Shown here: positions 12,001 through 15,000 of the stretch, piece after piece | How the letters are laid out: each line of letters starts with the position of its first letter | How positions within the stretch are numbered: position 1 is the stretch's first letter | Virus record (IMG/VR): IMGVR_UViG_2718218360_000008 | Origin: a virus | Taxonomy: Duplodnaviria > Heunggongvirae > Uroviricota > Caudoviricetes | DNA: 64,000 bases | Direction: 5' to 3' (one strand) | Program-made: the position numbers

Positions 12001-15000
12001 TTCACAGTTACGGTGCTGGCGCAATGGTGTTGTGCTGGCACTGCGACAACCAGCTGCGCGACCAGACCTCCGAATCACTTGAGCAACTTACTCAACAAAA
12101 TCTGACAGCCTGGATGATTGACGTCATACGCCATGTAATGAATGGCACGCAGGAGCGGGAATTATCGCTGGCTGAATTATCCTGGTGGGCAGTCTGCAAT
12201 CAGGTGGTGGACGCATTACCTGAGGCAGTATCGCGTCGCTCTCTGGGATTACCGGCGGAAAAAATCCGCTCCGTATACCGTGAAAGCGACATCATACCGG
12301 GAGAACAGACCGCCACCAGCATACTGAAGCAGCGCACAAAAAATATTGCGCTACCGCCTCACACCCACCAGCAACAGAACCCACCACAGGAAAAGACGGT
12401 GGTCAGCATTGCCGTTGATCCGGAGTCTCCGGAATCCTTCATGAAACGACCTAAACGTCGCCGCTGGGTAAATGAGAAATACACACGCTGGGTAAAGACA
12501 CAGCCGTGTGCGTGTTGTGGTAAGCCAGCGGACGATCCTCATCATCTGATTGGTCATGGTCAGGGCGGAATGGGAACAAAATCCCACGATATTTTCACGC
12601 TACCGCTGTGTCGGGAGCATCACAACGAGCTTCATGCGGATCCGCTGGCGTTCGAAGAAAAGCATGGTTCCCAGGTTGATTTAATTTTTCGTTTTCTTGA
12701 TCACGCCTTTGCAACCGGCGTGCTCGGGTAAAAGAGGTTACTGATGCGTATAGAGTTTGTTTTGCCTTACCCGCCGACGGTGAACACCTACTGGCGACGT
12801 CGTGGCAGCACATATTTTGTATCAAAAGCCGGTGAGCGTTATCGCCGGGATGTGGCACTTATTGTTCGCCAGCAGCGGCTGAAATTAAACCTGTCCGGAA
12901 GGCTGGCGATAAAGATTATTGCAGAGCCACCGGATAAGCGCCGTCGTGACCTGGACAATATCCTGAAAGCACCACTGGATGCGCTGACGCATGCCGGACT
13001 TCTCATAGACGACGAGCAGTTTGATGAAATCAATATTGTGCGCGGCTAGCTCGTTTCTGGTGGGCGGCTGGGCGTGAAGATTTACAAAATTGAAAGTGAG
13101 TGAGCATAAATATGATATACCCGGAAATTACAGGCAAAAGCGGTGAGCATTTACGCCTGAAAACGCTGGAAAGTGTCTGGATCCAGGGGAAACTGCGTAT
13201 GTGGGGGCGTTGGTCGTATATTGGCGACGGTAAGACGGGAAATATGTTCAACCAATTACTGACCTCTAAAAAGCTGACAAAAACGGCAATTAACGAGGCG
13301 CTCCGGAGGATGAAAAAAGCGGGTCTGGACAAACCTGAACTTGAGGCTTTTTTGCGGGATATGATCAACGGCAATCAAAAAAGCTGGCTGGCACATTGTA
13401 CCGATTCAGAGGCGTTAATAATCGATAGGGTTATTGGTGAAGTACTGGCAGGTTATCCCGGGCTGCTCAATGTTCTGAGTCAGCGTTATGTGGGGCGGGG
13501 GATGACTAAGCGCAAAATGGCTGAATTGCTGAATGATGCACATCCGGAATGGAGTTTAAGAACCTGTGAAAGACGCATTGAGCATTGGCTAAAGGTGGCA
13601 GAATTTATTTTGTACAAACCAATGGTTATGGCTTTTGGTATAGAGAAAAAAGTTATTGCTTTTTGACGTAAAAACTGCTTCAATTCCGGTAAGCTTCGCA
13701 AAGCTGTACCGCGAGGCGAATAGCAGACATGGACATTTGAAAGAGCCCGCTTTTTGCGGGTTTTTTTATGACTGAAAAACGGCACGGGGCGTTAAACGCG
13801 CTGGTGGTTGCTAATACCGGTCTTTCAACTTGCTGGCTTTTTCGACAAGAGTTATTGGTATGTCACGTTAACCGGAAAAGGGAAAAAGACATGCTAAAAC
13901 AGCAGGATATGACAGAAACCGCCAGAGTGGTGTTTAATGAATTAAGCGTTACCGAACCGGCGACAGTCGGGGAGATTGCGCAGAATACTTACCTTTCACG
14001 CGAACGCTGCCAGTTAATACTGACCCAGCTGGTTATGGCGGGTCTGGCAGACTATCAGTGCGGTTGTTACAGACGCATTCAGTCCTGAAGGCTTTTTATT
14101 TGTGGTAAATGGGCGGCTGGTGGGGGGGGCGGCACCTGTCAGTCCTTTGCTTATGTGTTGATGATAATTTACCTTTTGGGGCTATAATTGAGCTAACCAA
14201 TTGCTAATGAAAGTAAAATTATAATGGCTGTTGTCTGTTCAGTTATCATGGTTTGCTCCCCAATTAATATTTTTCTTGAAAAGGATACGTTGTCACTTAA
14301 GCCAGGCTCAGTCGTTCTGGCCACCAAATGCATCAGGGAGCTTTTCCTTATGCATTATGGCAAAGTTAAAATTGTCGATATAAGCGAATCCGTCGTAAGT
14401 CAATATCTGGAAAGTCAGCATAAGCTGACGAGGACTCGTCTGACTGACATTCCGCTTTACCTGTTGCTGGAACCCAACAATCCTGCGTTGGCTGCGGCTT
14501 TAATTACCAGCCAGGGATTTTCCGGAGAGGTCACGGATATGTTTCTTATGATGGCCTGCCTGTCTCTGTTTGAAACAGATGAACGGATGTCATTGTTTTT
14601 AAGTGGATGTTTATCCAGCATAAGTGCCAAAGTCAGGGCGATAATTCAGACAGATATATCAGCAAGCTGGACGCTTGGTGCGATTGCTCTACAGTTGCAT
14701 ATGAGTGAGAGTTTGTTAAAGACAAAACTGAAAAATGAAGGGGGCATGTTCAGTCGCTTGTTGCTGGAAGAGCGGATGCGTGTTGCTGTAAATATGTTAT
14801 GTTCCCGGTATGGATATGGACAGGCTGTAGCAGAAAAATGTGGTTATTCAAGCCGGTCCTACTTTATTTCTGTATTTCACCGCTATTATGGCTTCCCGCC
14901 AGACAGATATGTATCCAGGCAAGGGCTTGATTATTGATTTTCATCTGATTATTATTTTTTGGCTCGGCCCTTTAGCTCAGTGGTGAGAGCGAGCGACTCA

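Follow-up and report, generated by a model that had tools for sequence, protein, structure and literature searches.

The AraC/XylS-type regulator gene downstream of Q in Escherichia coli O157:H7 prophage Sp11 / CP-933O is very probably psrB

PatE, PsrA and PsrB are three AraC-like regulators of Escherichia coli O157:H7 prophages that feed acquired DNA into the core GAD circuit of the host. PsrB (z2104) is reported to bind the gadE promoter and, at hdeA, the region from -132 to -45 (PMC10877973 and PMC8565820, citing Tree 2011 and Yang 2015). PatE, too, is described as acting on gadE and on that segment of the hdeA promoter. GadE and YhiF increase with PsrB, as does acid resistance, while repression of the LEE-encoded type III secretion system (T3SS) is described as indirect, through GadE and YhiF (PMC10877973, PMC8565820). 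Enhanced survival in mice has been ascribed to PsrB, and a colonisation phenotype to PsrA; deletion of psrB alone has little effect on secretion, so the natural contribution of the gene may be small or conditional (PMC10877973, PMC8565820). The joining of the GAD circuit to a lowering of LEE T3SS bears on stomach passage and ruminant colonisation. In lambdoid phages, moron insertions are tolerated from Q/tR' up to the lysis genes (PMC4104026).

Here we characterize an AraC/XylS-type gene in a window of 64,000 nucleotides (IMG/VR record IMGVR_UViG_2718218360_000008), which corresponds to the E. coli O157:H7 prophage Sp11 / CP-933O (O-island 57). A first-pass annotation had recognised a prophage AraC-like regulator of a kind that rewires virulence and acid resistance in enterohaemorrhagic E. 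coli, as the reviews report for PsrB, but had called its targets unknown; they are published, namely the gadE and hdeA promoters as direct targets, with GadE and YhiF raised and LEE/T3SS lowered indirectly. The targets and phenotypes of PsrB given here are those of the literature, by way of the two reviews. The identity of psrB being already in print, the earlier observation was correct rather than new, and because the regulator circuit is published the finding adds no new biology. What is new is minor: a correction to the Sakai start codon, a portable cassette, and arguments against strict dependence on Q.

Identity and integrity of the regulator gene

The gene occupies positions 14224-14937 on the + strand and encodes 237 amino acids (aa), ending in TGA. 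We identify it, with a probability of about 0.92, as psrB (prophage-encoded secretion regulator B; Z2104 / ECs_2191 / EDL933_RS10010, WP_000301797.1), an AraC/XylS activator of host acid resistance that indirectly lowers T3SS. Over the surrounding 3301 bases the window matches EDL933 (1904050-1907350) and Sakai Sp11 at 100% identity, which puts psrB at 1905274-1905987 of EDL933, within OI-57 (1849324-1929825, z2048-z2151). Z2104 is annotated there as the AraC-type regulator of CP-933O, the order of Z2102-Z2107 agrees with that of the window genes, and it is z2104 that the reviews name PsrB (PMC10877973, PMC8565820). The step from Z2104 to the window gene was made by position, gene order and annotation text: the name PsrB is absent from the database entries for WP_000301797.1, a cluster look-up returned only the generic “helix-turn-helix domain-containing protein”, Sakai labels ECs_2191 a “phage regulatory protein”, and a full-text search of a paper collection gave no mention of ECs2191.

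No second Psr-like gene is present in the window. O157:H7 genomes carry two psr copies detectable at the DNA level, psrB itself being found at 99% identity or more in 588 complete genomes, and the aa identity between psrB and the sole other close copy in EDL933 is 91%, next to a published PsrA-PsrB figure of 90%. The kinship with PatE, PsrA and PsrB that had been proposed from the sequence holds, alignment showing the gene to be PsrB itself (100% in EDL933 and Sakai) and 37% identical to the presumed PatE. The range first given for the regulator, 13667-14937, does contain it, but the gene proper is confined to 14224-14937; the wider range begins one base past the stop codon of Q and ends with that of psrB, and so also takes in a leader, a terminator, a 65-aa open reading frame (ORF) and a promoter-like site.

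The AraC/XylS-type regulator first annotated is borne out by matches of the intact 237-aa ORF to Pfam HTH_AraC, in two stretches (E 2.9e-13; 50 bits, cut-off 26.6), and to HTH_18 over residues 155-230 (37.8 bits, cut-off 33.6). Residues 134-233 align with the crystal structure of the GadX DNA-binding domain (3mkl, E 2e-18), and the Rns structure is also aligned, so that PsrB has the hallmark of AraC/XylS proteins, a C-terminal DNA-binding domain some 100 residues long that carries two helix-turn-helix (HTH) motifs. Within that family PsrB belongs to a YdeO/AppY/PatE/Psr subgroup, across which residues 1-130, a possible N-terminal companion (dimerisation or ligand) domain, are conserved. Its top NCBIfam match is YdeO, full-length and aligned from residue 1, at 106 bits against a cut-off of 348 for the YdeO equivalog NF007407, so PsrB counts as related to YdeO but falls outside the equivalog. 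EnvY is 31% identical in a full-length alignment.

A reading that has to be weighed here is that this copy is a decayed, inactive allele in a defective prophage, with a 195-aa truncated protein or a damaged HTH region. Sakai does annotate only 195 aa for ECs_2191, starting at the ATG at 14350, which is preceded by GGGAG, whereas the ATG at 14224 lacks an obvious Shine-Dalgarno sequence; the AlphaFold model, built on a 12-sequence alignment, is also poor, with beta-strands at residues 3-54 followed by helices, at low confidence (mean pLDDT 61.8, pTM 0.40). The frame is nevertheless open from 14224, where the PGAP annotation of EDL933 begins its 237-aa call, and both PHROG 1450 and NCBIfam YdeO align with the protein from residue 1. 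The first 42 residues are conserved among 12 family members, the most distant at 39% identity, with an invariant M-x-V-x-C-S N-terminus and nearly invariant V7 and I8, and the motif M-x-V-x-C-S-V is common to PsrB, the presumed PatE, YdeO and AppY. Judged from these alignments, the Sakai reference annotation places the start codon of psrB 42 codons downstream of the true one; the correct form is 237 aa, and 42 conserved residues are missing from the annotated product. Inactivating mutations in the HTH region, looked for as grounds for rejecting a functional regulator, were not found: the invariant residues of the DNA-binding domain are all kept, and hundreds of genomes carry an identical copy. 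Among the residues present, K166 aligns with K170 of AppY, a DNA-binding residue whose change to glutamate (K170E) abolishes DNA binding (PMC10057817). Decay of the allele is, on this evidence, barely credible, and we continue with an intact psrB.

Genomic setting and expression of psrB

Upstream of psrB lies a Q-like late antiterminator gene of the DUF1133 family (13112-13666, +; ECs_2193, “phage antiterminator” in Sakai), with matches to Pfam DUF1133 (E 4e-105), more weakly to Phage_antitermQ (E 6e-8), and to PHROG 753, “anti-termination protein Q-like” (E 5e-81). It is followed by an intrinsic terminator at 13739-13767 (+), a hairpin with a 12-pair stem and a 5-nt loop ending in a run of seven T, which we take as tR' by position only; the 86-nt stretch that holds it has a folding energy of -29.7 kcal/mol (z = -3.7), and none of 200 shuffled sequences was as stable. 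At the psrA locus a different terminator stands at the equivalent place. No convincing pR' promoter emerged from a consensus scan of the gap that separates the stop codon of Q from the terminator, the TTGACG at 13663 having as its only partner a TAAGCT at a spacing of 21 nt. An Rfam isrK match at 13693-13766 was rejected, scoring 19.8 bits against a gathering threshold of 50 and reflecting a generic hairpin plus terminator; this sub-threshold match lends no support to an IsrK- or StxS-like small RNA.

The + strand order is Q, terminator, psrB, tRNAs, a nanS-p-type esterase (16297-18147), holin (18596) and lysozyme (19202), and no opposite-strand gene intervenes between Q and psrB. The early claim of a regulator downstream of Q and its terminator on the late strand is thereby confirmed, and psrB sits where late-operon morons are found, between Q/tR' and the lysis genes. 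As for the further suggestion that this is the slot in which related phages carry stx or other morons, the general region is right but the stx slot proper is not, since psrB lies upstream of the tRNAs; the position after the tRNAs is held here by TerB-like and DUF3927 genes. The G+C content of psrB, 43.8%, is below that of the neighbouring genes, and low G+C is frequent among morons. The window also contains a pchB-like gene of the PerC family (21655-21969), so that the regulator, borne by the lambdoid Sp11, has the neighbouring Pch/PerC regulator typical of Psr genes.

This position invites the reading that psrB is strictly late and Q-dependent, silent in the lysogen, its effects on the host limited to cells about to lyse. 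The gene is on the late strand behind Q and a strong terminator, and in lambdoid lysogens pR' transcripts as a rule end at tR' (PMC7547250). Against this stands a sigma-70-like promoter candidate at 14161-14188 (+; ATGATA-16 nt-TATAAT), 36 nt before the ATG, which has 10 of 12 consensus matches, is the best site in a consensus scan of 13000-16400, and keeps every base at the psrA locus. In published RNA-seq of lysogens, moreover, Z2104 gave 1-37 RPKM in each of 11 uninduced conditions, the background being about 0.14; these values are subject to possible cross-mapping of reads from one to the other of the 94%-identical psr paralogues. Z2104 showed no rise in LB with antibiotics, was far above Z2105 and Z2106, which were mostly 0, and was usually above Z2102, the Q gene by gene order; ECs2191 and ECs2192 are absent from the supplements of Tree 2014. 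The psrA deletion phenotypes, reported in uninduced cultures, likewise imply lysogenic expression for the Psr family. Because of the conserved sigma-70-like site and the transcripts in uninduced lysogens, psrB expression is probably not strictly Q-dependent, and silence in the lysogen seems unlikely.

We envisage that psrB would be transcribed at a low level in the lysogen from its predicted own promoter, possibly with some addition from terminator read-through, and that after induction the late message antiterminated by Q would cover it as well. The two-HTH C-terminal domain of PsrB would then bind AT-rich sites in two host promoters, those of gadE and hdeA, and raise GadE and YhiF, a rise that would switch on glutamate-dependent acid resistance (AR2) together with the HdeAB chaperones, while GadE and YhiF would lower LEE type III secretion.

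A portable cassette of psr and tRNA genes

Homology to the psrA locus extends over 13756-15258 (blastn, 92.6% identity), its 5' boundary falling within the 3' arm of the terminator. The stretch so delimited forms a cassette comprising a small winged-helix ORF, psr, tRNA-Ile2 and tRNA-Arg genes, and a terminator. The small ORF (13891-14088, +; ECs_2192 / Z2103) is annotated with 65 aa in both Sakai and EDL933, and an alternative form of 106 aa starting at 13768 is possible; the PHROG 331 match rises from 127 bits with the short form to 161 bits with the long one. RefSeq assigns the product to the TrmB family and Pfam gives a weak TrmB match (E 0.0066). This protein might act together with Psr or control it, a role so far overlooked; the copy at the psrA locus is frameshifted. 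Downstream of psrB are a tRNA gene with a CAU anticodon (14966-15041, +; ileZ-type tRNA-Ile2, ileZ5 in Sakai; ARAGORN, and Rfam tRNA at 72.5 bits) and an argO-type tRNA-Arg (UCU) gene (15142-15218, +; argO5 in Sakai; ARAGORN and Rfam), and the cassette is closed by a predicted intrinsic terminator at 15231-15256 (+), found by a terminator scan and consisting of an 8-pair stem, six of the pairs G-C, and a T-run. The CAU anticodon of tRNA-Ile2, once lysidine-modified, reads AUA.

The codons AUA, AGA and AGG are enriched about five-fold in psrB relative to the average usually given for E. coli, so translation of the gene could depend on the tRNAs that travel with it. Since the cassette would be read as part of the transcript antiterminated by Q, PsrB and Stx would be made together on prophage induction where both are present; in phiSTEC1575-Stx2k the psr cassette is directly upstream of stx2. 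That the terminator-bounded cassette is a unit of inheritance, with tRNA-dependent translation of psrB and co-expression of PsrB and Stx on induction, is for us a doubtful but serious possibility; if true, acid resistance and the shut-off of T3SS in the population would be linked to induction. As one part of the same tentative proposal, the cassette may pass between lambdoid phages whose Q types are unrelated. A cassette that carries rare-codon tRNAs and can sit just upstream of stx2 matters in any case when late transcription of Stx phages is read.

The cassette is found behind at least three unrelated Q or upstream contexts, which argues against tying it to any single phage regulatory module. 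This bears on a further reading of psrB, as a regulator of the phage cycle that acts on phage promoters (the late/lysis region, the tRNA genes), its effects on the host being cross-talk from over-expression. Much of the published evidence that the reviews summarise does come from in trans or induced expression, the deletion of psrB alone changes secretion little, and PsrB is paralogous to the gadE-binding YdeO and AppY, so that cross-recognition is plausible when it is over-expressed. Besides the variety of Q contexts, the moron-like G+C content of psrB speaks against such a role, as do the direct binding of hdeA and gadE, the mouse survival phenotype of PsrB and the colonisation phenotype of PsrA (PMC10877973, PMC8565820). 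We consider a phage-cycle function highly improbable, and regard PsrB as a regulator of host genes.

Comparison with described regulators and morons

PsrB itself, as Z2104 of EDL933, shows no sequence-level difference from the window gene and has the same prophage, gene order and AraC-type annotation. PsrA (z1789) has equal length and 91% aa identity to PsrB, and its locus likewise combines the small winged-helix ORF, psr, tRNAs, the promoter-like sequence and a nearby PerC/Pch gene, there 4 kb downstream. It lies in another prophage with another Q type, however; there a CPBP protease gene separates Q from the cassette, the tRNAs number three where psrB has two, and the small ORF is disrupted; and deletion of psrA raises secretion, whereas deletion of psrB does not (PMC10877973, PMC8565820). 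The same reviews place PsrA in CP-933N, yet CP-933N / OI-50 (80 kb of EDL933 around potB/potC) contained no AraC gene and gave no tblastn match, and a search with a 94%-identical allele located the paralogue at 1.266 Mb of EDL933, in a prophage adjacent to yccA. The old and current EDL933 assemblies thus disagree on psrA, a practical point for anyone using the published locus assignment.

The AraC gene of CP-933H / OI-8 was taken as PatE (z0321). Aligned with PsrB from end to end, it shows 37% identity, a matching N-terminal motif and a comparable HTH region, and is too diverged from psrB for detection at the DNA level; unlike psrB, it lies at the end of a degraded prophage beside an IS element and not between Q and the lysis genes. 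YdeO and AppY of E. coli K-12 are each 29% identical to PsrB over the full length and have the N-terminal motif in common with it. AppY resembles PsrB in being prophage-borne (DLP12), and binds gadE directly, but it is situated at the prophage end beside ompT, whereas psrB follows Q; YdeO, in contrast to both, is chromosomal and controlled by EvgA. Finally, stx and other lambdoid morons occupy the same general region as psrB, between Q/tR' and the lysis cassette, with stx after the tRNA genes and psr before them, the two standing side by side in phiSTEC1575-Stx2k.

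An AraC-type regulator identified as PsrB

The 237-amino-acid open reading frame at 14224-14937 (+) encodes an AraC/XylS-type regulator, as the first-pass annotation had it. HTH_AraC (E 2.9e-13) and HTH_18 from Pfam each exceed their curated cut-offs, and over its C-terminal 100 residues the protein aligns with the GadX DNA-binding domain as solved by crystallography (E 2e-18) and with Rns, CsvR, and ToxT. The range first assigned to the gene, 13667-14937, does contain it but also takes in a leader, a terminator, and a small ORF.

We identify this protein with high confidence as PsrB, through its locus, annotation, and copy number rather than by direct comparison with a record labelled "PsrB"; the database entry, WP_000301797.1, bears only generic names. 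Many E. coli O157:H7 chromosomes, those of Sakai and EDL933 among them, carry positions 13000-16300 at 100% identity, and Sakai prophage Sp11 matches the window at 99.86% identity over 15.3 kb. Sakai has it as ECs_2191, a "phage regulatory protein" of the element annotated "prophage Sp11, lambda-like phage". Its locus tag in the current assembly of EDL933 is EDL933_RS10010 (1905274-1905987), a position that falls within O-island 57 (1849324-1929825, z2048-z2151; PMC8565820); the original EDL933 annotation is given in the supplement of PMC4048457. In this island z2104 is PsrB, prophage-encoded secretion regulator B, with PsrA as its closest homologue at 90% identity (PMC10877973, PMC8565820). 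A tblastn search detected a single Psr-like gene in the window, and O157:H7 genomes typically hold two psr copies at the DNA level, the second EDL933 copy (1266008-1266721) encoding a protein 91% identical to PsrB. In CP-933H / OI-8, the AraC gene, taken from its position to be PatE (z0321), shares 37% identity with PsrB along the full length.

The first-pass interpretation is supported and its finding correct, if already known, psrB having been named and functionally characterised in the literature. Minor by-products are the shortened start call in Sakai, the structure of the cassette, a discrepancy at the PsrA locus, and a neighbouring sRNA locus.

PsrB function is described here from two reviews (PMC10877973, PMC8565820). 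According to these, deletion of psrA raises secretion, single deletion of psrB has little effect, and psrB supplied in trans represses secretion in a psrA mutant. PsrB also raises survival at pH 2.5-3.5 and binds the gadE promoter and the -132 to -45 segment of the hdeA promoter, the same segment as PatE; when induced, it also improves survival in mice. To have called its targets unknown was the only substantive error of the earlier reading.

Among NCBIfam models YdeO scores best, with a full-length match, and GadX comes second; both are AraC-family gadE activators. YdeO and the prophage-borne AppY each align end to end with PsrB at 29% identity. AppY binds the gadE P3 promoter directly, and its K170 to E substitution abolishes DNA binding (PMC10057817); the PsrB counterpart, K166, lies inside an invariant S-E-S-L-L-K motif in the first HTH. 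Inactivating mutations of the HTH region, which would have spoken against a working regulator, are absent: the gene is free of frameshifts and stop codons and keeps all conserved DNA-binding residues. Its sequence thus fits a role as a gadE/acid-resistance activator.

Two starts have been called for this gene, a PGAP call of 237 aa from 14224 and a Sakai call of 195 aa from 14350. The latter leaves out 42 N-terminal residues (14224-14349) conserved across the Psr/PatE/YdeO/AppY group and kept in 12 family members at identities down to 39%; in these, M1, V3, C5, and S6 are invariant, with V7 and I8 almost so. PsrB, the presumed PatE, YdeO, and AppY share the motif M-x-x-V-C-S-V, and the PHROG 1450 and YdeO models both begin their alignment at residue 1 of the long form. 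The conserved N-terminus, the shared motif, and these profiles lead us to take the 237-aa form as the real protein on sequence grounds, despite the absence of a good Shine-Dalgarno sequence before 14224.

Late-region setting and expression

Window ORFs on the + strand between 13100 and 19800 follow a typical lambdoid late-region arrangement. A RusA gene (12744-13049, +) precedes a Q-like gene (13112-13666, +), whose product matches DUF1133 and, more weakly, Phage_antitermQ in Pfam, and PHROG 753, "anti-termination protein Q-like", at E 5e-81. A 65-aa ORF (13891-14088), the regulator, two tRNA genes (14966-15041 and 15142-15218), a TerB-like gene, a 616-aa sialate-esterase-type gene (16297-18147), a holin gene (18596), and a lysozyme gene (19202) follow, all on the + strand. 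Between the Q-like gene and the regulator stands a terminator hairpin of 12 pairs followed by seven T (13739-13767); the 86-nt stretch holding it folds at -29.7 kcal/mol, and 0 of 200 shuffles were equally stable. The proposed location downstream of Q and a terminator on the late strand was therefore borne out.

From its position and orientation, psrB would be transcribed by Q-modified polymerase on induction. Strict Q-dependence is nevertheless unlikely, because of a conserved promoter-like site, the transcript levels of Z2104 (psrB), and the state of the late signals: a consensus scan did not find pR', and the 13739-13767 terminator is named tR' from its position. The best sigma-70-like site in 13000-16400, ATGATA-16-TATAAT (14161-14188), lies 36 nt before the ATG and keeps all its bases in the psrA locus. 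In RNA-seq of EDL933 under 11 conditions, Z2104 reached 26, 37, 1, 21, 36, 5, 4, 14, 14, 18, and 7 RPKM against a background of ~0.14, values open to read cross-mapping with psrA; it usually exceeded the upstream Z2102 and Z2103, the downstream Z2105 and Z2106 were at 0 in most conditions, and LB-antibiotics brought no rise (PMC4048457). A run of eight G (14123-14130), between the small ORF and the promoter-like site, is the only strongly divergent spot of this conserved spacer, the psrA locus having GTGTTAG.

Further likely morons in Sp11 include a hok/mok toxin locus (within 10610-11286), a YgiW/YdeI-family stress-tolerance protein gene (10942-11286) upstream of a DUF968 gene, and the TerB-like and DUF3927 genes (15388-15984), which fill the post-tRNA slot occupied by stx in Stx phages. 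A PerC/Pch-family gene (21655-21969, +; pchB in Sakai, ECs_2182) lies 6.7 kb downstream of psrB in the same prophage. Its product is an activator of LEE expression, whereas psrB represses the T3SS; finding both in one prophage agrees with the psr-pch association described in the literature.

A strong match to the Rfam sRNA family STnc100 (104.7 bits; gathering score 47) lies at 15988-16160 (+), in the gap separating the DUF3927 ORF from the esterase gene, with a terminator behind it at 16185-16203. Among the sRNAs in the supplement of Tree 2014 is the ~222-nt Hfq-bound EcOnc04 in Sp11 (Sakai 2188592-2188649, -), which maps to window ~16220-16277 (+); in a table there of intergenic regions crosslinked to Hfq, the one between ECs2189 and ECs2190 stands 13th.

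The PsrA locus and the psr cassette

PsrA (z1789) is assigned to OI-50 / CP-933N in reviews. The current assembly of EDL933, by contrast, has the 91% paralogue in a prophage adjoining yccA at 1.266 Mb (CP008957.1 1266008-1266721), and its potB/potC prophage (EDL933 1610000-1690000) contains no Psr-like gene. Other closed O157:H7 genomes carry this copy at ~1.18 Mb. The old annotation calls Z1789 a "putative envelope protein", probably an EnvY-based name, and has no entries for Z1790-1792, numbers that probably belong to the three tRNAs. This locus seems to differ between the old and new assemblies.

The psrA locus matches the window at 92.6% nucleotide identity over 13756-15258, and directly beyond this block not at all. 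The 5' edge lies inside the 3' arm of the 13739-13767 terminator and the 3' edge just past a second strong terminator (15231-15250), enclosing the small ORF, promoter-like region, psr, and tRNAs. Upstream of the block, the Q gene of the psrA locus belongs to another family, a CPBP protease gene is added, and a different terminator occupies the equivalent position.

The small winged-helix ORF (ECs_2192 / Z2103), annotated as 65 aa from 13891, can be read as 106 aa from an ATG directly after the terminator T-run (13768-14088, +); the longer form covers PHROG 331 positions 1-98 and scores 161 bits versus 127. Its transcript level is similar to that of Z2104. The psrA locus carries a frameshift in this ORF, and an early stop interrupts the long form there. 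The rare codons ATA/AGA/AGG reach 3.8 per 100 in psrB versus 0.7 in the TerB-like gene and 1.1 in the DUF968 gene (E. coli mean ~0.7-0.8), and psrB adjoins tRNA-Ile2 (CAU) and tRNA-Arg (UCU), which read them.

The gene had also been assigned to the slot where related phages carry stx or other morons. The region downstream of pR' does tolerate morons (PMC4104026), but psr and stx do not quite share a slot. In strain ECA64, a 59%-identical Psr homologue lies between the tRNAs and the esterase gene. Phage phiSTEC1575-Stx2k, which also has an iraM-like anti-adaptor gene just 3' of stx, carries the cassette (OQ243220.1 16390-19071) directly upstream of stx2A/stx2B, in the order Q, small ORFs, TrmB-like ORF, Psr homologue (91.6%), three tRNAs, stx2A, stx2B, and holin. 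Normally, then, psr lies 5' of the tRNA genes and stx 3', and both can occur together.
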